IMG/VR virus record: IMGVR_UViG_2563366799_000002
Origin: a virus
Lineage: Duplodnaviria > Heunggongvirae > Uroviricota > Caudoviricetes
Length of the DNA: 9,427 bases
Strand: one strand, 5' to 3'
The notes beneath the pieces were generated by a model. That model ran no database searches, was not told the DNA's origin, and worked only from the letters and a program-made list of their open reading frames with translations. The position numbers and the translations under genes are program-made. Positions 1-9,427 of this stretch are shown one piece after another (the first letter of the stretch is position 1; each line of letters opens with the position of its first letter).

Positions 1-248
<248 letters not shown>

Positions 249-324: not shown

Positions 325-346
325 CTGCGCACTTCACGGTGCGCAG
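325..346. promoter_or_regulatory. Perfect 8-bp inverted repeat CTGCGCAC-N6-GTGCGCAG, 17 bp upstream of the ybhJ start
   Basis: Read directly: ctgcgcac ttcacg gtgcgcag at 325-346, followed by GGAG (352-355) and the ybhJ ATG at 363. It could be an operator or a 5' leader hairpin. No T-run follows, so an intrinsic terminator is unlikely. Confidence 0.3.
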
Positions 347-362
347 ATATCTGGAGCATTTG

Positions 363-2624
363 ATGATCAAGTTATCTGAAAAAGGCGTGTTTCTCGCCAG
401 TAATAACGAAATAATTGCCGAAGAACATTTCACCGGCGAAATTAAAAAAGAAGAAGCCCAAAAAGGCACTATTGCCTGGTCTATTCTCTCTTCTCATAAT
501 ACGTCCGGAAATATGGATAAACTTAAAATTAAGTTTGATTCATTAGCCTCTCACGATATTACCTTTGTTGGTATTGTACAGACCGCTAAAGCGTCCGGTA
601 TGGAACGTTTCCCGCTGCCGTATGTGCTGACCAACTGCCATAACTCACTTTGCGCCGTCGGCGGCACCATTAACGGTGATGACCATGTTTTTGGTTTATC
701 GGCGGCTCAGCGTTATGGCGGTATTTTTGTGCCTCCGCATATTGCGGTCATCCATCAATATATGCGTGAGATGATGGCAGGTGGCGGCAAAATGATCCTC
801 GGGTCAGACAGTCACACCCGTTACGGTGCATTAGGGACAATGGCAGTCGGTGAGGGCGGCGGCGAGTTGGTAAAACAATTGCTTAATGACACTTGGGATA
901 TCGACTATCCGGGAGTTGTTGCGGTGCATCTGACCGGAAAACCAGCGCCGTATGTGGGGCCGCAGGATGTGGCGCTGGCTATCATCGGTGCCGTGTTCAA
1001 AAACGGCTACGTCAAAAACAAAGTGATGGAATTCGTAGGTCCCGGCGTTGCTGCGCTCTCTACCGATTTCCGTAACAGCGTTGACGTTATGACCACTGAA
1101 ACGACCTGTTTAAGTTCTGTCTGGCAAACCGATGAAGAAGTCCATAACTGGCTGGCGCTCCACGGTCGCGGCCAGGATTACTGCCAGCTTAACCCTCAAC
1201 CGATGGCGTACTACGATGGCTGCATCAGCGTTGATTTAAGCGCCATCAAACCAATGATTGCGCTGCCGTTCCACCCGAGCAACGTGTATGAAATCGACAC
1301 GCTGAACCAGAACCTGACCGACATTCTGCGTGAGATTGAAATTGAGTCCGAGCGCGTGGCGCACGGTAAAGCCAAACTCTCGCTGCTGGATAAAGTGGAA
1401 AATGGTCGCCTGAAAGTGCAGCAGGGGATTATCGCGGGCTGTTCTGGCGGTAACTATGAAAACGTTATCGCCGCAGCAAATGCGCTGCGCGGTCAATCCT
1501 GTGGTAACGACACCTTCTCGCTGGCGGTTTACCCGTCATCACAGCCGGTGTTTATGGATCTCGCCAAAAAAGGTGTGGTAGCAGATTTGATTGGCGCAGG
1601 CGCAATCATCAGAACCGCGTTCTGCGGCCCATGCTTTGGCGCGGGCGATACGCCAATCAACAACGGTTTGAGTATTCGCCACACCACGCGTAACTTCCCG
1701 AATCGCGAAGGCTCTAAGCCAGCCAATGGGCAGATGTCAGCGGTGGCGTTGATGGACGCTCGTTCTATCGCTGCGACTGCGGCAAACGGTGGCTATTTAA
1801 CTTCTGCCAGCGAACTCGATTGCTGGGACAACGTGCCGGAGTACGCCTTCGATGTAACGCCGTATAAAAACCGTGTTTATCAGGGCTTTGTTAAAGGGGC
1901 AACTCAGCAACCGCTGATTTACGGACCGAACATTAAAGACTGGCCGGAATTAGGTGCGCTGACTGACAATATCGTCCTCAAAGTGTGCTCGAAGATCCTC
2001 GACGAAGTGACCACCACCGACGAACTGATCCCTTCCGGTGAAACCTCTTCTTATCGTTCAAATCCGATTGGTCTGGCGGAGTTTACCCTGTCACGCCGCG
2101 ATCCAGGTTATGTTGGCAGAAGTAAAGCGACTGCTGAGCTGGAAAATCAGCGTCTGGCGGGGAATGTCAGCGAGCTGACAGAGGTGTTTGCGCGCATTAA
2201 GCAGATTGCTGGTCAGGAGCATATTGATCCGCTGCAAACTGAAATTGGCAGCATGGTCTATGCGGTGAAACCAGGCGATGGTTCTGCGCGTGAACAGGCG
2301 GCGAGCTGCCAGCGTGTGATTGGCGGTCTGGCGAATATTGCCGAGGAGTACGCGACTAAACGCTACCGTTCTAACGTCATCAACTGGGGGATGTTACCGC
2401 TGCAGATGGCGGAAGTGCCAACCTTTGAAGTGGGGGATTACATTTACATCCCTGGCATTAAAGCGGCGCTGGATAATCCGGGTACGACGTTTAAAGGTTA
2501 TGTGATCCATGAAGATGCGCCGGTAACGGAAATTACGCTCTATATGGAAAGTCTGACTGCTGAAGAGCGCGAGATTATCAAGGCGGGTAGTTTGATTAAC
2601 TTCAATAAAAACCGTCAGATGTAA
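363..2624 (+). CDS. ybhJ: Aconitase-family protein YbhJ (putative hydratase/dehydratase)
   Basis: The long ORF 339..2624 matches E. coli YbhJ as I recall it from [31 protein letters not shown] onward, so the start is placed at the ATG at 363 (GGAG 7 nt upstream). Aconitase-type motifs are present (GSDSHT; CGPCFG Fe-S ligand region). Stop TAA at 2622-2624. Confidence 0.93.
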
Positions 2625-2857: not shown

Positions 2858-4141
2858 TTACTTCTTCGCCTCTGCAACCACTTTGCTACCCACGCCGCGA
2901 TTATTGTATTCCCACATGCGGTTGTAGTTAGTGTCATTCAGATTGCGCTGTATTTCGTCGCTATCGTCAACGCTGCCGGTATTACCCGCAAATGGACGAT
3001 TGGAAATCACCGCATCGCCCCACGGTTTAACCGTGTTAAAACCTTCGTTGATGGCGCTATCACGGATCACCACCTGACCGTTGGTATTGGCATCAACATC
3101 CAGCGAGCGGCCCAGTTGTGCCACGCCATCACCGGAAGCATTGAAACGGCTGTTTACGGCGAGGAAACCGTAATAGATGTTGGACAGCGTAGCCGGTGCA
3201 AACACATACGCTTCTTGCTGAGTACGTGAGTTCACCACGCGGAATTCGGTGTTATCGAACACCACTGCGCCGCGACCAGAAACGATATCCACATCCCCTT
3301 CAATATAGCTGTTGGTCACCAGCGTACGCGGCTGACGGTTGGTTTCCAGACGGTTCTGCACACCGCTGTTGGTGACAAAGAAGGTGTTCTGACGACCGAG
3401 AATGTTAACGTTGTTAATCTGTACCTGGTCACCATCAGTACGCAGTGCCACCGCCGGATGGTTACCTGCATCTACGCTATCGCCCAGCGTGTTTTCGATG
3501 GTCAGATTTTGCAGTTGCAGGCCATTGTTTTGTGACCAGAAGACCGCAGAGCAGAGAACACCGATACTGTCGCTGCGTTTGCTCTGGCAGCTATCGTACA
3601 TATACCACGCTGGTTTACCTGGCATATATTTGCCGCGCGGGTTGACGTCGTGACGCCAGTCGGTAGGGCTCATGCCACCATCAAGGGAAAGCCCAATCTT
3701 CACATCAATCGGTTTTTCACCTGTACCGTACAGAGTAATTCCACCCGGAGCGGCAGGGACATATACCGTTCCCTGATACTCACCAGGCATCACGGCAATA
3801 TACTGGCGCTTGTTGGTACGCTTGATAATTGCCGCATCTACCGCCGCCTGAATCGTGGTATGCGTTACACCTTGAGTGCCCGCCGGGCCGACAACAAATT
3901 CAGGTTGCGCAGGCAGGGTAATCGGGGAAGGATTCCACGCTGCAGCACCTGGTGTCAGGGATGCAAAATAGTGTTGAGCATCGAAATTCTGCGCTTCTTT
4001 TGCCGACAGAATCGGGCGAGAAGAGGTACCAGGCGCGGTTTGATCAGAAGGACGTTGATCGGGCGGGGTTGAGCTACAGGCGGTCAGCGTCACGCCAAAA
4101 GCCAATGCCAGCGCCAGACGGGAAACTGAAAATGTGTTCAC
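2858..4141 (-). CDS. ybhC: Outer-membrane lipoprotein YbhC (pectinesterase-fold, putative acyl-CoA thioesterase)
   Basis: 427-aa ORF with signal peptide and lipobox (MNTFSVSRLALALAFGVTLTAC SS), matching E. coli YbhC as I recall it. GTG start at 4141, stop TAA at 2858-2860. It is the gene that borders attB-lambda on the gal side. Confidence 0.93.
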   Translation of the reverse strand: MNTFSVSRLALALAFGVTLTACSSTPPDQRPSDQTAPGTSSRPILSAKEAQNFDAQHYFASLTPGAAAWNPSPITLPAQPEFVVGPAGTQGVTHTTIQAAVDAAIIKRTNKRQYIAVMPGEYQGTVYVPAAPGGITLYGTGEKPIDVKIGLSLDGGMSPTDWRHDVNPRGKYMPGKPAWYMYDSCQSKRSDSIGVLCSAVFWSQNNGLQLQNLTIENTLGDSVDAGNHPAVALRTDGDQVQINNVNILGRQNTFFVTNSGVQNRLETNRQPRTLVTNSYIEGDVDIVSGRGAVVFDNTEFRVVNSRTQQEAYVFAPATLSNIYYGFLAVNSRFNASGDGVAQLGRSLDVDANTNGQVVIRDSAINEGFNTVKPWGDAVISNRPFAGNTGSVDDSDEIQRNLNDTNYNRMWEYNNRGVGSKVVAEAKK

Positions 4142-4180
4142 AGGTTGCTCCGGGCTATGAAATAGAAAAATGAATCCGTT

Positions 4181-4280
4181 GAAGCCTGCTTTTTTATACT
4201 AAGTTGGCATTATAAAAAAGCATTGCTTATCAATTTGTTGCAACGAACAGGTCACTATCAGTCAAAATAAAATCATTATT
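4181..4280. other. Phage lambda attL (bacterial B arm - 15-bp core - phage P' arm)
   Basis: Core GCTTTTTTATACTAA at 4188-4202, with bacterial sequence to its left (tgaagcct) and the lambda P' arm to its right (gttggcattataaaaaagcattgcttatcaatttgttgcaacgaacaggtcactatcagtcaaaataaaatcattatttg). IHF H' site TATCAATTTGTTG at about 4227-4239. Int arm-type sites P'1 AGGTCACTAT (4249-4258), P'2 CAGTCAAAAT (4259-4268) and P'3 AAATCATTAT (4270-4279). Confidence 0.9.
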
Positions 4281-5346
4281 TGATTTCAATTTTGTCCCAC
4301 TCCCTGCCTCTGTCATCACGATACTGTGATGCCATGGTGTCCGACTTATGCCCGAGAAGATGTTGAGCAAACTTATCGCTTATCTGCTTCTCATAGAGTC
4401 TTGCAGACAAACTGCGCAACTCGTGAAAGGTAGGCGGATCCCCTTCGAAGGAAAGACCTGATGCTTTTCGTGCGCGCATAAAATACCTTGATACTGTGCC
4501 GGATGAAAGCGGTTCGCGACGAGTAGATGCAATTATGGTTTCTCCGCCAAGAATCTCTTTGCATTTATCAAGTGTTTCCTTCATTGATATTCCGAGAGCA
4601 TCAACATGCAATGCTGTTGGGATGGCAATTTTTACGCCTGTTTTGCTTTGCTCGACATAAAGATATCCATCTACGATATCAGACCACTTCATTTCGCATA
4701 AATCACCAACTCGTTGCCCGGTAACAACAGCCAGTTCCATTGCAAGTCTGAGCCAACATGGTGATGATTCTGCTGCTTGATAAATTTTCAGGTATTCGTC
4801 AGCCGTAAGTCTTGATCTCCTTACCTCTGATTTTGCTGCGCGAGTGGCAGCGACAGGGTTTGTTGTTATATGGCCTTCAGCTATTGCCTCTCGGAATGCA
4901 TCGCTCAGTGTTGATCTGATTAACTTGGCTGACGCCGCCTTGCCCTCGTTTATGTATCCATTGAGCATTGCCGCAATTTCTTTTGTGGTGATGTCTTCAA
5001 GTGGAGCATCAGGCAGACCCCTCCTTATTGCTTTAATTTTGCTCATGTAATTTATGAGTGTCTTCTGTTTGATTCCTCTGCTGGCCAGGATTTTTTCGTA
5101 GCGATCAAGCCATGAATGTAACGTAACGGAATTATCACTGTTGATTCTCGCTGTCAGAGGCTTGTGTTTGTGTCCTGAAAATAACTCAATGTTGGCCTGT
5201 ATAGCTTCAGTGATTGCGATTCGCCTGTCTCTGCCTAATCCAAACTCTTTACCCGTCCTTGGGTCCCTGTAGCAGTAATATCCATTGTTTCTTATATAAA
5301 GGTTAGGGGGTAAATCCCGGCGCTCATGACTTCGCCTTCTTCCCAT
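4276..5346 (-). CDS. int: Lambda-type integrase Int (tyrosine recombinase), apparently intact
   Basis: 356-aa ORF, 1071 nt, MGRRRSHERRDLPPNLYIRNNGYYCYRDPRTGKEF...QYRDDRGREWDKIEIK. Length, position relative to att and sequence match lambda Int as far as I can recall. The catalytic R..K..HxxR..H..Y context is present (HELRSL, GHKSDTMASQY). Confidence 0.95.
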   Translation of the reverse strand: MGRRRSHERRDLPPNLYIRNNGYYCYRDPRTGKEFGLGRDRRIAITEAIQANIELFSGHKHKPLTARINSDNSVTLHSWLDRYEKILASRGIKQKTLINYMSKIKAIRRGLPDAPLEDITTKEIAAMLNGYINEGKAASAKLIRSTLSDAFREAIAEGHITTNPVAATRAAKSEVRRSRLTADEYLKIYQAAESSPCWLRLAMELAVVTGQRVGDLCEMKWSDIVDGYLYVEQSKTGVKIAIPTALHVDALGISMKETLDKCKEILGGETIIASTRREPLSSGTVSRYFMRARKASGLSFEGDPPTFHELRSLSARLYEKQISDKFAQHLLGHKSDTMASQYRDDRGREWDKIEIK

Positions 5347-5542
5347 TTCTGATCCTCTTCAAAAGGCTACCTGTTACTGGTCGATTTAAGTCAACCTTTA
5401 CCGCTGATTCGTGGAACAGATACTCTCTTCCATCCTTAACCGGAGGAGGGAATATCCTGCATTCGCGCACCCATCGACGAACTGTTTCAAGGCTTCTTGG
5501 GCGTCGCTGGCGAGCGTTCCACTCCTGAAGTGTCAAGTACAT
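5324..5542 (-). CDS. xis: Lambda-type excisionase Xis
   Basis: 72-aa ORF MYLTLQEWNARQRRPRSLETVRRWVRECRIFPPPVKDGREYLFHESAVKVDLNRPVTGSLLKRIRNGKKAKS, matching lambda Xis. Its 3' end overlaps the int start by 23 nt as in lambda. Confidence 0.95.
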   Translation of the reverse strand: MYLTLQEWNARQRRPRSLETVRRWVRECRIFPPPVKDGREYLFHESAVKVDLNRPVTGSLLKRIRNGKKAKS

Positions 5543-5568
5543 CGCAAAGTCTCCGCAATTACACGCAA

Positions 5569-5592
5569 GAAAAAACCGCCATCAGGCGGCTT
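5569..5592 (-). terminator. Candidate intrinsic terminator hairpin (minus strand) between orf55 and xis
   Basis: Minus-strand reading AAG CCGCC TGAT GGCGG TTTTTTT: a 5-bp GC stem with 4-nt loop followed by a 7-T run. The stop codon of orf55 (TGA) sits in the loop. The stem is short, so its strength is uncertain. Confidence 0.45.
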
Positions 5593-5749
5593 GGTGTTCT
5601 TTCAGTTCTTCAATTCGAATATTGGTTACGTCTGCATGTGCTATCTGCGCCCACAGCATCCAGTGGTCATAGCAGTCGCTGATGTTCTCGGCTTCGATAA
5701 CTCTGTTGAATGGTTCTCCATTCCATTCACCTGTAACTCGGAAGTGCAT
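5582..5749 (-). CDS. Small lambda ORF (orf55-like hypothetical protein, 55 aa)
   Basis: Not in the ORF track (below its length cutoff). My own translation of the minus strand: MHFRVTGEWNGEPFNRVIEAENISDCYDHWMLWAQIAHADVTNIRIEELKEHQAA*. The 168-nt length and the 39-nt gap to xis match the small hypothetical ORF that follows xis in lambda, as I recall the map. Confidence 0.6.
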   Translation of the reverse strand: MHFRVTGEWNGEPFNRVIEAENISDCYDHWMLWAQIAHADVTNIRIEELKEHQAA

Positions 5750-5752
5750 TTA

Positions 5753-6226
5753 TCATCGCCATAAAACAAAACTCGCCGTAGCGAGTTCAGATAAACCATC
5801 CGGAATTACCGGAGAGTTGCCGGGTTCTTTAATGTGCAAGCGAGGCTCACCATCTTTTGGTTCAGGCCACTGGCGCTCCATGTTGATCTTCAATTTATCT
5901 TCCATAGCAGCGGTAATTTCAGCATCGCTGATGCCAGCACGGCGCTGTGCATCCCACAACAGGAAATGCATATCAGCCCACTCGCTGAGATCGTCTGGTT
6001 CGGCTGCGGCTTCCAGAGCCTCTTTTGAGAGGTGTTTCAGTGGACCAATGGGGCCAACGCAGCCAAATGTGGAGTCAGACCATTTGGCATGCTCGTGGCG
6101 AATCAGTTCGCGTTCCAGTGATGCCAGTGCAATTCGTGCCAGTTCCATTTGTTCGCCACGAGTAAGCCCGTTTTCAAGCGGATTTTTAATGAACAATTCA
6201 ATACGTTCTTTGGTAATAGTGGTCAT
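5753..6226 (-). CDS. Phage protein with MazG/HisE-like nucleotide pyrophosphohydrolase motif (157 aa); not a lambda gene
   Basis: ORF with an AGGA ribosome-binding site 7-8 nt upstream of its ATG and a stop 3 nt before the orf55 start. It contains the E-x2-E...E-x2-D pattern (KEALEAAAE...SEWADMHFLLW) typical of all-alpha NTP pyrophosphohydrolases. It occupies the position where lambda carries ea8.5/ea22 but does not resemble them. The function is a motif-based inference. Confidence 0.6.
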   Translation of the reverse strand: MTTITKERIELFIKNPLENGLTRGEQMELARIALASLERELIRHEHAKWSDSTFGCVGPIGPLKHLSKEALEAAAEPDDLSEWADMHFLLWDAQRRAGISDAEITAAMEDKLKINMERQWPEPKDGEPRLHIKEPGNSPVIPDGLSELATASFVLWR

Positions 6227-6236
6227 TTGTTAGTCC

Positions 6237-6517
6237 TTAAACTGCTAGTTGCAATTGCATTTCAAAGCGGTCGCGTTGTTCACAATACGCAAGAGAACCA
6301 GGGCTATTGTGTGCCTCAATCCGTTCTACCATTAATGCTGCGCGTGTCTCTTTACTTGCAGGTGCATAAGCCCCAGACCAGGCTTTATCAATACCGATGT
6401 TTCGAGCGACGTTCGTACTATCTGCGCTGGCTAAGGGTAATTTTGTGAATATCAGCGGATTTAACATGCGCAATCCATGTAGTTTCGTAACCGGCTGCCA
6501 GAAAAATGCATTCCGTG
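6237..6517 (-). pseudogene. Possible 3' remnant of an unknown gene in the non-lambda substitution
   Basis: Of the three minus-strand frames across the non-lambda segment, only one stays open from the exo junction (about 6517) to a TAA at 6237, just upstream of the next gene's ribosome-binding site ([93 protein letters not shown]). An internal ATG at 6473 would give the 78-aa ORF in the track. No family recognised. Confidence 0.3.
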
Positions 6518-6895
6518 GTTGCCGTCACTGCATAAACCATCGGGAGAGCAGGCGGTGCGCATACTTTCGTCGCGATAGATGATCGGGGATTCAGTAACAT
6601 TAACGCCGGAAGTGAACTCAAAGAGGGTTCTGGCGTCGTTCTCGTACTGTTTTCCCCAGGCCAGCGCCTTAGCGTTAACTTCCGGAGCCACACCGGTGCA
6701 AACCTCAGCAAGCAGGGTGTGGAAGTAGGACATTTTCATGTCAGGCCACTTCTTTCCTGAGCGGGGCTTTGCTATCACGTTGTGAACTTCTGAAGCGGTG
6801 ATGACGCCGAGCCGTAATTTGTGCCATGCATCATCCCCCTGTTCGACAGCTCTCACGTCGATCCCGGTACGCTGCAGGATAATGTCCGGTGTCAT
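6461..6895 (-). pseudogene. exo: Lambda exonuclease (Red alpha / Exo), truncated after codon 126 with an 18-codon foreign tail
   Basis: Residues 1-126 ([22 protein letters not shown]...[15 protein letters not shown]) match lambda Exo. After GACGGCAAC (about 6518) the sequence diverges and reads [18 protein letters not shown] instead of GLELKCPFTSRDF.... The C-terminal 100 residues of the 226-aa protein are absent, including the region I recall as carrying catalytic E129/K131. Confidence 0.85.
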
Positions 6896-7677
6896 GCTGC
6901 CACCTTCTGCTCAGTGGCTTTCTGTTTCAGGAATCCAAGAGCTTTCACTGCTTCGGCCTGTGTCAGTTCTGACGATGCTCGAATGTCGCGGCGAAATATC
7001 TGGGAACAGAGCGGCAATAAGTCGTCATCCCATGTTTTATCCAGGGCGATCAGCAGAGTGTTAATCTCCTGCATGGTTTCATCGTTAACCGGAGTGATAT
7101 CGCGTTCCGGCTGACGTTCTGCAGTGTATGCGGTATTTTCGACAATGCGCTCGGCTTCATCCTTGTCATAGATACCAGCAAATCCGAAGGCGAGACGGGC
7201 ACACTGAATCATGGCTTTATGCCGTAACATCCGTTTGGGATGCGACTGCCACGGCCCCGTGATTTCTCTGCCTTCGCGGGTTTTGAATGGTTCGCGGCGG
7301 CATTCATCCATCCATTCGGTAACGCAGATCGGATGATTGCGGTCCTTGCGGTAAATCCGGCATGTACAGGATTCATTGTCCTGCTCAAAGTCCATGCCAT
7401 CAAACTGCTGGTTTTCATTGATGATGCGGGACCAGCCATCAACGCCCACCACCGGAACGATGCCGTTCTGCTTGTCAGGAAAGGCGTAAATTTCTTTCGT
7501 CCACGGATTAAGGCCGTACTGGTTGGCGACGATCAGCAATGCGATGAACTGCGCATCGCTGGCATCGCCTTTAAATGCCGTCTGGCGAAGAGTGGTGATC
7601 AGTTCCTGTGGGTCGACAGAATCCATGCCGACACGTTCAGCCAGCTTCCCTGCCAGCGTTGCGAGTGCTGTACTCAT
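6892..7677 (-). CDS. bet: Lambda Red beta (Bet) single-strand annealing protein, full length
   Basis: 261-aa [69 protein letters not shown]...KATEQKVAA, matching lambda Bet. Its stop overlaps the exo ATG (ATGA) as in lambda. Confidence 0.95.
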
Positions 7678-7682
7678 CCGTT

Positions 7683-7793
7683 TTATACCTCTGAATCAAT
7701 ATCAACCTGGTGGTGAGCAATGGTTTCAACCATGTACCGGATGTGTTCTGCCATGCGCTCCTGAAACTCAACATCGTCATCAAACGCACGGGT
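7683..7793 (-). pseudogene. gam: Lambda gam, 3' remnant only (last ~35 codons)
   Basis: Minus-strand translation ...[36 protein letters not shown] equals the Gam C-terminus and lies 5 nt from the bet start as in lambda. Upstream of about 7794 the frame reads ...[12 protein letters not shown] and hits a stop, so there is no Gam N-terminus. Confidence 0.8.
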
Positions 7794-7822
7794 ATCTGGC
7801 TGAAAGAGGGGGTTATTAAGGC

Positions 7823-8185
7823 GTGAATACCTACAGCATCACATTACCCTGGCCTCCGAGCAATAATCGCTATTACCGCCATAATCGCGGACGCACGCAC
7901 ATCAGCGCAGAGGGGCAGGCATACCGCGATAACGTCGCCCGAATCATTAAAAACGCAATGCTAGATATCGGCCTGGCTATGCCTGTGAAAATCCGCATTG
8001 AGTGCCACATGCCGGATCGCCGTCGCCGTGACCTGGATAATCTGCAAAAAGCCGCTTTTGACGCACTCACTAAAGCAGGTTTCTGGCTGGATGATGCTCA
8101 GGTCGTTGATTACCGCGTTGTGAAGATGCCTGTTACCAAAGGTGGGAGGCTGGAACTGACCATCACCGAAATGGGGAATGAATGA
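7823..8185 (+). CDS. rusA: Holliday-junction resolvase RusA (lambdoid nin-region type)
   Basis: 120-aa ORF (GTG start) [26 protein letters not shown]...[12 protein letters not shown], matching the DLP12 RusA of E. coli as I recall it. Confidence 0.9.
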
Positions 8186-8322
8186 TGTTTGAGTTTAATA
8201 TGGCAGAACTTCTTCGCCACCGCTGGGGGCGTCTGCGCTTATATCGTTTCCCCGGTTCTGTTTTGACCGATTACCGAATACTGAAGAATTACGCCAAAAC
8301 ACTGACAGGAGCAGGAGTATGA
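8182..8322 (+). CDS. ylcG: Small ORF YlcG-like (46 aa) between rusA and Q
   Basis: My own translation: [46 protein letters not shown]. The start overlaps the rusA stop (ATGA). It corresponds to the small ylcG ORF between rusA and quuD in DLP12. Below the ORF-track cutoff. Confidence 0.55.
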
Positions 8323-8407
8323 AGTCAGAGATAACAATCAACTAATACTGTTTTGTTGATTTTTGCTTGTAATTGGCGTTCTGGTCTGAGTTTTGTGGAG
8401 TAAGTTG

Positions 8408-8785
8408 ATGCGTGATATTCAGATGGTTCTTGAGCGTTGGGGAGCGTGGGCGGCTAATAATCATGAAGATGTGACCTGGTCGTCCATTGCCGCCGGTTTT
8501 AAGGGATTAATTCCTTCAAAAGTAAAATCTCGCCCACAATGTTGTGACGATGACGCGATGATCATTTGCGGGTGCATGGCCCGTCTGAAAAAGAACAACA
8601 GCGATTTGCATGATTTATTGGTGGACTATTATGTCGGCGGCATGACTTTTATGGCGCTTGCACGTAAGCATGGGCGATCTGATTGTTGGGTTGGCAGGAT
8701 GCTTCAGAAAGCTGAGGGCGTAGTGGAGGGTATGCTGATGGTGTTGGTTCTCCGATTGGAGATGGATGCTGATTGTTCGAAATAA
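8408..8785 (+). CDS. Late-gene antiterminator Q (phage 82 / DLP12 QuuD type)
   Basis: [65 protein letters not shown]... with cysteine cluster. The start is placed at the ATG at 8408 (GGAG 8 nt upstream) rather than the TTG used by the ORF track. It follows rusA-ylcG as in DLP12. Confidence 0.85.
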
Positions 8786-8883
8786 TTAAAGGAAAAGTTG
8801 CTGTCTGATTGTCATTAGTCTAACATTTTAAATGTTGGAATCGCAACGTAGTTATTATCATATAACAGCTTGTTTCCTGATTT
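8786..8883 (+). promoter_or_regulatory. Candidate Q-dependent late promoter region (pR'-like) downstream of Q
   Basis: AT-rich 100 bp directly after Q, where lambdoid phages carry pR' and the Q-utilisation site. Possible hexamers: TTGCTG (8798-8803), 17 bp, TAACAT (8821-8826); or TTGGAA (8835-8840) with TATCAT (8856-8861). The assignment is positional and not certain. Confidence 0.35.
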
Positions 8884-8912
8884 AGCCAGCCTCCCCAAAG
8901 GCTGGTTTTTTT
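8884..8912 (+). terminator. Intrinsic terminator (tR'-like) on the plus strand
   Basis: AGCCAGCC tccccaaa GGCTGG followed by TTTTTTT (8906-8912): a GC-rich stem-loop with a U-run in the plus orientation only. Confidence 0.6.
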
Positions 8913-8940
8913 CTAATAAGTATTATTTCGGGTAGGGATT

Positions 8941-9145
8941 TTATTGTTTAACCCATAATAATTCATTGACATTGAATCCCAACTTTTGAGCGGTTCGCAC
9001 ATAGTCTGCTTTTACTTTATCTGGAATAGTTGGGGTCCTTGCCAGAATCCATAGGTATTCTCTGTTCGGACCACTGACAAGAGCATACTTATACTCATCA
9101 TCCAGTTTGATTACATTATAGCCACCATAGAAGGGGCCAAAAAAC
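8941..9145 (-). pseudogene. Bacterial lipocalin (Blc-family) gene, C-terminal ~68 codons only; 5' part removed by the IS1 insertion
   Basis: Minus-strand translation ...LPFFGPFYGGYNVIKLDDEYKYALVSGPNREYLWILARTPTIPDKVKADYVRTAQKLGFNVNELLWVKQ* aligns with the C-terminal third of E. coli Blc (SFFGPFYGGYNVIALDREYRHALVCGPDRDYLWILSRTPTISDEV...FIWVQQ, from memory) but is clearly divergent. The frame runs straight into the IS1 terminal repeat at 9146. The M in the ORF track is a TTG inside IS1. The segment is visibly AT-rich. Confidence 0.75.
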
Positions 9146-9427
9146 GGTAATGACTCCAACTTATTGATAGTGTTTTATGTTCAGATAATGCCCGATGACT
9201 TTGTCATGCAGCTCCACCGATTTTGAGAACGACAGCGACTTCCGTCCCAGCCGTGCCAGGTGCTGCCTCAGATTCAGGTTATGCCGCTCAATTCGCTGCG
9301 TATATCGCTTGCTGATTACGCGAAGCTTTCCCTTCAGGCGGGATTCATACAGCGGCCAGCCATCCGTCATCCATATCACCACGTCAAAGGGTGACAGCAG
9401 GCTCATAAGACGCCCCAGCGTCGCCAT
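9146..9427 (-). mobile_element. IS1 insertion sequence, terminal 282 bp (element continues beyond window end)
   Basis: GGTAATGACTCCAACTTATTGATAGTGT at 9146 onward is the IS1 terminal inverted repeat, followed by the insB 3' coding sequence. Confidence 0.9.
9161..9427 (-). CDS. insB: IS1 transposase InsB (InsAB'), C-terminal 88 codons (partial)
   Basis: Minus-strand [91 protein letters not shown] is the IS1 InsB C-terminus. The gene runs off the window edge. Confidence 0.9.

Follow-up and report, generated by a model that had tools for sequence, protein, structure and literature searches.

The Red recombination genes of bacteriophage lambda lie in the order exo-bet-gam under the promoter pL. 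Red-beta (Bet) consists of an N-terminal DNA-binding domain (residues 1-177) and a C-terminal domain that binds Exo and SSB (residues 183-261) (PMC6393309), and the active site of lambda Exo is formed by E85, D119 and K131, the last being the catalytic base (reviewed in PMC7496540). Recombination of single-stranded oligonucleotides requires Beta alone (PMC3357384), so that the sufficiency of Beta for oligonucleotide recombineering, from which an earlier note on this locus had argued, is established. In Escherichia coli K-12, the recET genes of the Rac prophage are silent until sbcA mutations arise, and rusA of the DLP12 prophage is silent until IS2 or IS10 inserts (PMC10956419). Moreover, temperate phages are known to pick up DNA from defective prophages by means of Rad52-like recombinases (PMC3945230).

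Here, we analyzed a stretch of 9,427 bases (hereafter, the window) that is 100% identical over its whole length to part of an E. coli draft scaffold (GCA_000408645.1, KE137211.1; L003). The window is a segment of the E. coli chromosome in which a defective lambdoid prophage, integrated at att-lambda beside ybhC, is represented by its early-left arm. With lambda Red it shares the gene order, the overlap between the bet stop and the exo start and, but for one nucleotide, the ribosome-binding site of bet. However, the window has lost pL, N, kil, cIII and the whole of the immunity and replication region, and on its nin/Q side it is DLP12- or phage-82-like (ybcO-rusA-ylcG-Q) and not lambda-like. 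Like the prophage of the window, Rac is defective and lambdoid and has a gene for a single-strand annealing protein (SSAP) of the RecT/Red-beta family (PF03837). The Rac gene is silent for want of an active promoter, as bet in the window probably is; unlike the window, Rac has kept the partner exonuclease RecE, and its activation has been demonstrated genetically. By analogy with recET, the bet gene of the window could be activated by mutation. DLP12 resembles the window in its promoterless rusA-ylcG-Q module, its defective state and the nearby IS elements, but it occupies another attachment site and has no red genes. In addition, the IS2 and IS10 insertions of DLP12 lie upstream of rusA, whereas the IS1 element of the window lies downstream of this gene and is therefore unable to drive it.

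The prophages of strain ET490 (L001) and strain 38 (L002) and the DE3 prophage (L012) share with the window the site adjacent to ybhC, int and xis, and red DNA that is 97-99.8% identical. Strain 38 also has a large internal deletion of the immunity region, whereas ET490 and DE3 retain exo, bet, gam, kil and the repressor gene; ET490 additionally has O and P, and its early region is annotated as complete. Laboratory strains of the BL21(DE3) type have exo-bet-gam in the DE3 prophage. A match in E. coli B was dropped as a native comparator because it is this engineered prophage. Cryptic lambdoid prophages whose recombination gene is intact but, apparently, without a promoter are a well-known kind, and the locus adds one more. 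We assign a probability of roughly 0.8 to the reading that it is an ordinary decaying lambdoid prophage in which bet is intact by virtue of its position, has lost its promoter and is most probably silent or reached only by weak read-through from IS1.

Layout of the remnant and its host context

In the source scaffold, the contig that corresponds to the window is bounded by N-runs on both sides. One of them sits immediately before the window start, so the contig begins at a scaffold gap. The first feature is the left end of an insertion element (positions 1-248, minus strand), with the N-terminus of InsH reading out of the contig. We take this element to be IS5 from the InsH translation at 1-180; the identical gene in the scaffold has a weak Pfam match to DUF772, and homology between the window and the ybhI-ybhJ spacer of ET490 begins only at 249. 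In this part of the scaffold (16716-18799), the ybhI permease gene next to IS5 is shortened, encoding 361 rather than 477 amino acids. Additionally, a second copy of the ~185-bp IS-end sequence, 87.6% similar, was seen about 3 kb away. The host genes ybhJ (339-2624, plus strand) and ybhC (2858-4141, minus strand) follow. The spacer between them (2625-2857) contains REP-like repeats, tandem and partly inverted, with self-matches of about 100 nt at 91-92% identity, as seen in the comparison with ET490.

The prophage begins between ybhC and int with the lambda att core (attL), GCTTTTTTATACTAA, at 4188-4202 on the plus strand; it is an exact match where no chance match is expected. The adjacent int gene (4276-5346, minus strand) is intact and encodes 356 amino acids; Pfam integrase domains were found in the identical gene of the scaffold, and the relatives are annotated as tyrosine recombinases. 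The xis gene is also intact (5324-5542, minus strand; 72 amino acids; PF07825, Exc). Further along the minus strand, an ORF of 55 amino acids separates xis from the gene for a DUF550 dATP/dGTP pyrophosphohydrolase (5753-6226; 157 amino acids; PF04447, 142.7 bits), and an ORF of 78 amino acids separates the latter from the exo fragment. With the att core, int and xis beside ybhC, the window has the layout of an att-lambda prophage, as its relatives do, and the gene order agrees with that of lambda and of two E. coli prophages at att-lambda.

Beyond the red genes, the plus strand carries rusA, encoding a Holliday-junction resolvase (7823-8185; 120 amino acids; PF05866, 82.1 bits; so named in the relatives), ylcG (8182-8322; 46 amino acids; PF26818 on the identical scaffold gene) and the antiterminator gene Q (8393-8785; PF06530, 170 bits). 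A terminator scan placed a terminator-like hairpin after Q, at 8884-8907. A C-terminal fragment of a lipocalin gene (8941-9145, minus strand) covers profile positions 82-146 of 146 of PF08212 and is cut by IS1; its N-terminal part lies beyond IS1 and the gap in the scaffold. The right end of IS1 occupies 9146-9427 (minus strand) and was recognized by a match to the right inverted repeat (IRR, 9146-9174), by the InsB ORF (9161-9427; PF03400) and by the N-run; insB points toward bet, and the contig ends at the scaffold gap. The gene interrupted by IS1 is Blc-like, and a second, inverted IS1 right end lies about 2.9 kb further along the scaffold, past a gap of 2,455 Ns, which implies that the lipocalin gene harbors two or more copies of IS1, or else a composite structure. 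Within the 9,427-nt window, no repressor, cro, O or P gene was found, and gam runs straight into the 3′ end of ybcO and rusA, an arrangement at odds with an inducible, viable prophage. A search of the window against Rfam at gathering thresholds returned no RNA family.

The bet gene and the two deletion junctions

The bet gene (6892-7677, minus strand) was identified as an ORF, by alignment with lambda Bet and by Pfam. Its product spans the full two-domain length of Red-beta, 261 amino acids, and is identical to lambda Bet at 260 of 261 positions over a gapless alignment, the sole change being A255T. It scored 115.6 bits against the RecT model (PF03837, cut-off 24 bits), with residues 24-183 covered. 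Bet of the ET490 prophage is the same protein, T255 included, and this exact protein was found on at least 1,000 contigs. The ribosome-binding region of bet, with the Shine-Dalgarno sequence GAGG inside the end of gam, is likewise identical to that of ET490 and departs from lambda at a single nucleotide (position -1). Given this near-identity, the product would be expected to possess the single-strand annealing and oligonucleotide recombination activities of lambda Bet.

On the downstream side of bet, exo has been reduced to a gene for 144 amino acids (exo′; 6461-6895, minus strand), made up of lambda Exo codons 1-126 (6518-6895) and 18 foreign codons. The first 126 residues are all identical to those of lambda Exo, the remaining 18 are unrelated to it, and phage homology ends at 6518; in Pfam, only profile positions 2-104 of 150 of YqaJ are covered. 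The fragment retains E85 and D119 but lacks K131 and the C-terminal 100 residues of the 226-residue lambda enzyme, and it therefore cannot be an active exonuclease. Thus, bet has no functional 5′-3′ exonuclease partner beside it, as the two-component (Exo plus Bet) Red system would demand.

A base-level comparison with the undeleted ET490 prophage resolved the end of exo into a double deletion: position 9156 of the ET490 locus is joined to 10634-10664, which is in turn joined to 11311. The middle piece appears in the window as a 20-nt filler (6498-6517) flanked by 4-nt microhomologies, GCTG (6494-6497) and GTTG (6518-6521). In the undeleted prophage, the sequence from which the filler was copied is some 650 bp distant, just past a homologue of orf63/DUF1382. 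Judged by their sequences, these joints are typical scars of illegitimate recombination. The double deletion would have taken the 3′ 100 codons of exo together with about 2 kb of downstream DNA.

On the upstream side, gam has been reduced to its last 36 codons (7686-7793) and the stop codon (gam′; 7683-7793 in all, minus strand). The fragment is identical to lambda in 111 of 111 nt and corresponds to positions 63-98 of the 98-position Pfam Gam profile (PF06064); the start codon is missing, and a complete Gam ORF is absent, homology upstream ending at 7794. The junction itself (7783-7801) was delimited by alignment with gam of ET490 and with the ybcO-rusA region of strain 38. Homology to gam is clear up to 7794, and homology to ybcO/rusA holds from 7783 onward, which places the crossover within an imperfect microhomology, AACGCACGGGTA in gam versus AACGCAGGTTA where ybcO ends. 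The break in gam corresponds to lambda coordinate 32,927, and all the DNA from there to the 3′ end of ybcO, which lies just upstream of rusA, has been lost, pL included. A single deletion, estimated at about 10 kb by analogy with the lambda map, would fuse the 3′ end of ybcO to gam codon 103 (numbered as in the 138-codon lambda gene) and would remove kil, cIII, N, pL/oL, the repressor gene, cro, cII, O, P, ren and the nin genes up to ybcO.

The structural part of the earlier note stands up well. It had described a full-length bet of 261 codons, an exo cut after codon 126, a gam reduced to about its last 35 codons and a deletion of pL, and each of these descriptions agrees with the alignments. 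The span that it gave, 6461-7677, does contain exo′ and bet, whereas gam′ lies outside its end. Its expectation that the alignment would reveal the loss of the catalytic residues of Exo was right for K131 and wrong for E85 and D119. Finally, its proposal of an SSAP unaccompanied by the exonuclease or the RecBCD inhibitor can be upheld for this locus only; the strain as a whole, of which the window covers 9.4 kb, may well possess full Red or RecET sets elsewhere.

If the two junctions were mis-joins in a draft assembly, the true genome would have an intact red region. The fact that the contig is bounded by scaffold gaps and IS elements speaks for such an artifact. However, both junctions lie well within the contig and were reproduced exactly, together with an identical bet, in six further independent assemblies (NCBI, ENA), and the exact 144-amino-acid Exo′ fusion product is present on 92 contigs (NCBI, ENA and Logan assemblies), all labeled E. 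coli. We consequently give the artifact practically no chance; the arrangement is a real feature of a lineage.

As a result of the large deletion, bet and rusA, an annealase gene and a Holliday-junction resolvase gene, now stand head-to-head 145 bp apart, both with their phage promoters removed. The early promoter of rusA, pR, is gone, while its ribosome-binding site, GAGGGGG, is retained right at the junction.

Transcription of bet

The only known promoter of bet, pL, has been deleted, and we searched for a substitute. A scan for sigma-70-like consensus sites found none on the minus strand between 7678 and 8922; its six sites in total fall within the shuffle expectation of 3.9 ± 1.8. A relaxed scan of the bet strand over the 1.48 kb preceding the gene (7678-9160) found nothing above chance: the best score was 9.0, compared with a mean maximum of 9.11 in shuffled sequences, 80% of which equaled or exceeded it, consensus scans of this type being blind to weak, non-sigma-70 or activator-dependent promoters. 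As no promoter-like site upstream of bet exceeds chance, the default expectation is silence, as for Rac recET and DLP12 rusA.

The sole visible source of transcription is IS1, which lies about 1.5 kb upstream on the bet strand and from which read-through is conceivable. A terminator scan of the bet strand from IS1 to bet found no convincing terminator, and the T-run of the hairpin (8884-8907) lies on the opposite strand. Nevertheless, transcripts from IS1 would be expected to terminate within the roughly 1.25 kb of untranslated RNA antisense to Q, ylcG and rusA. To judge from the sequence, bet is most probably transcriptionally silent or reached only by weak read-through from IS1.

These data bear directly on the proposal of the earlier note that the host may carry a chromosomal SSAP. 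Developed further, such a reading would have Bet expressed, through read-through from IS1 or from an unrecognized promoter, and Bet would carry out RecA-independent annealing in the absence of Exo and Gam, which would increase recombination with oligonucleotides or other single-stranded DNA. In its favor, bet has kept an undamaged reading frame and ribosome-binding site, both matching exactly those of a functional-looking allele, Beta by itself suffices for oligonucleotide recombination (PMC3357384), and insB is directed at bet across an interval where no convincing terminator was found. However, no promoter-like site beats chance, and on general grounds a long untranslated antisense RNA favors Rho-dependent termination. 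Furthermore, recombineering at high efficiency requires strong, induced expression. Weighing these points, we consider expression of Bet to this effect unlikely, and a silent or nearly silent bet in a decaying prophage remains our preferred reading.

Distribution, exchange and decay of the remnant

As a rule, E. coli carries an SSAP gene in its chromosome, and in this respect the strain is not peculiar. Among 5,426 complete E. coli genomes, 3,141 (58%) have a chromosomal bet at 80% or more of its length, and the gam-bet stretch is uninterrupted in 3,170, including nearly all of the genomes with bet. By contrast, neither the exo′ junction nor the gam/ybcO junction occurs in any of these complete genomes, and the exact gam/rusA junction is absent from the GTDB species-representative genomes, in which E. 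coli is represented by other strains.

We then asked whether bet has been maintained. Relative to lambda, the synonymous and nonsynonymous changes number 10 and 0 in exo′ and 15 and 1 in bet, and gam′ has no differences at all. As exo′ and gam′ are as free of damaging point mutations as bet, the intact state of bet is no evidence of selection; the changes relative to lambda reflect divergence among working phages and not decay after inactivation. Across the six assemblies with both junctions, the aligned parts of the remnant between attL and IS1 show 0-1 differences, dead gene pieces and spacers counted in, with the exception of a replaced Q gene in one of them (L004). The sole recurrent difference is a synonymous SNP in exo codon 62 that is private to the window. 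Purifying selection on bet was considered and rejected, since the dead flanks are equally clean and the entire remnant is invariant. Furthermore, in the related prophage that strain 38 has at this site, the result was the opposite one, namely a truncated bet fused to P beside an intact exo, which indicates that the outcome of decay is haphazard.

In two assemblies (L005 and L008), the remnant (4142-9145) is identical to that of the window although the flanks differ, by up to 2.6% in ybhJ and 1.4% in ybhC. An identical remnant beside diverged flanks shows either recent spread or movement between backgrounds or replacement of the flank by recombination, and it leaves room for a benefit to the host. 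Domestication would mean that bet, perhaps together with rusA, has been selected as a host module for recombination or repair while the rest of the prophage decayed. The adjacency of two intact recombination genes is in keeping with this idea, as is the presence of the remnant on 92 contigs, backgrounds with diverged flanks among them. However, bet is no more invariant than exo′, gam′ and the intergenic DNA, so there is no selective signal specific to bet; both bet and rusA have lost their promoters; the related prophage of strain 38 retained exo and had bet partly deleted; and the arrangement occurs in 0 of 5,426 complete genomes. Domestication therefore appears very improbable. The significance that the earlier note had implied for an orphan bet found no support: there is no promoter-like site better than chance and no signal of retention, and bet itself is carried by more than half of the complete genomes.

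Two assemblies bear traces of exchange with other lambdoid elements. In L004, Q is 11.7% divergent (window 8393-8767) and everything to the left of Q is identical. The divergence that starts at Q indicates a mosaic exchange point between ylcG and Q. Beyond Q the two also part: L004 continues with a porin gene, lysis genes and bor, the window with the lipocalin gene and IS1. In L010, differences are confined to the bet-gam′ region (14 plus 2, ~1.8%), and int through exo′ is essentially identical to the window. L010 is a single metagenome contig that shares the exo junction with the window and whose bet-gam′ allele carries T255S. Its gam is broken at the same base (window 7794; ~2190 in L010) but is fused to the middle of O, followed by P; the O breakpoint is at lambda ~39,119, just past iteron 4 of ori. 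A gam-O junction of this type is absent from the 5,426 complete E. coli genomes. The breakpoint shared by L010 and the window could have arisen by sequential deletions from one point, by two events at the GGTA microhomology or as a contig artifact. A recurrent deletion hot spot at 7794 in gam was also considered and gained no support, as the stretch is unbroken in 3,170 of the 3,189 genomes that have it.

The replacements in L004 and L010 look like visible exchange with lambdoid elements, which fits the acquisition of defective-prophage DNA by temperate phages (PMC3945230). A bolder version of this idea holds that read-through from IS1 or a cryptic promoter yields low, constitutive Bet, that Bet then anneals DNA independently of Exo and Gam, that the uptake of single-stranded DNA or oligonucleotides or the mosaicism of phages is thereby increased, and that the two replacements are the footprints of this activity. 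We regard this chain of events as quite improbable.

Overall, after analyzing these data, we propose that an ordinary lambdoid prophage has been decaying at this site through microhomology-mediated deletions and IS insertions rather than through point mutation, and that bet, lying between the two breaks, would have survived by position. The role of the remnant is probably passive, in that it would offer homologous DNA for recombination with infecting or resident lambdoid phages. The locus also carries a caution: an intact ORF in a young remnant is not evidence of function or of selection. If Bet is nonetheless expressed, oligonucleotide editing would be slightly easier in this lineage, and its recombination with phages perhaps freer; this would be a modest practical point and a case of a prophage remnant that shapes genome plasticity. 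In either case, the locus provides a clear, base-resolved example of lambdoid prophage decay, in which the lethal, immunity and replication block has been lost by microhomology-mediated deletions and the DNA between the breakpoints has been left intact.
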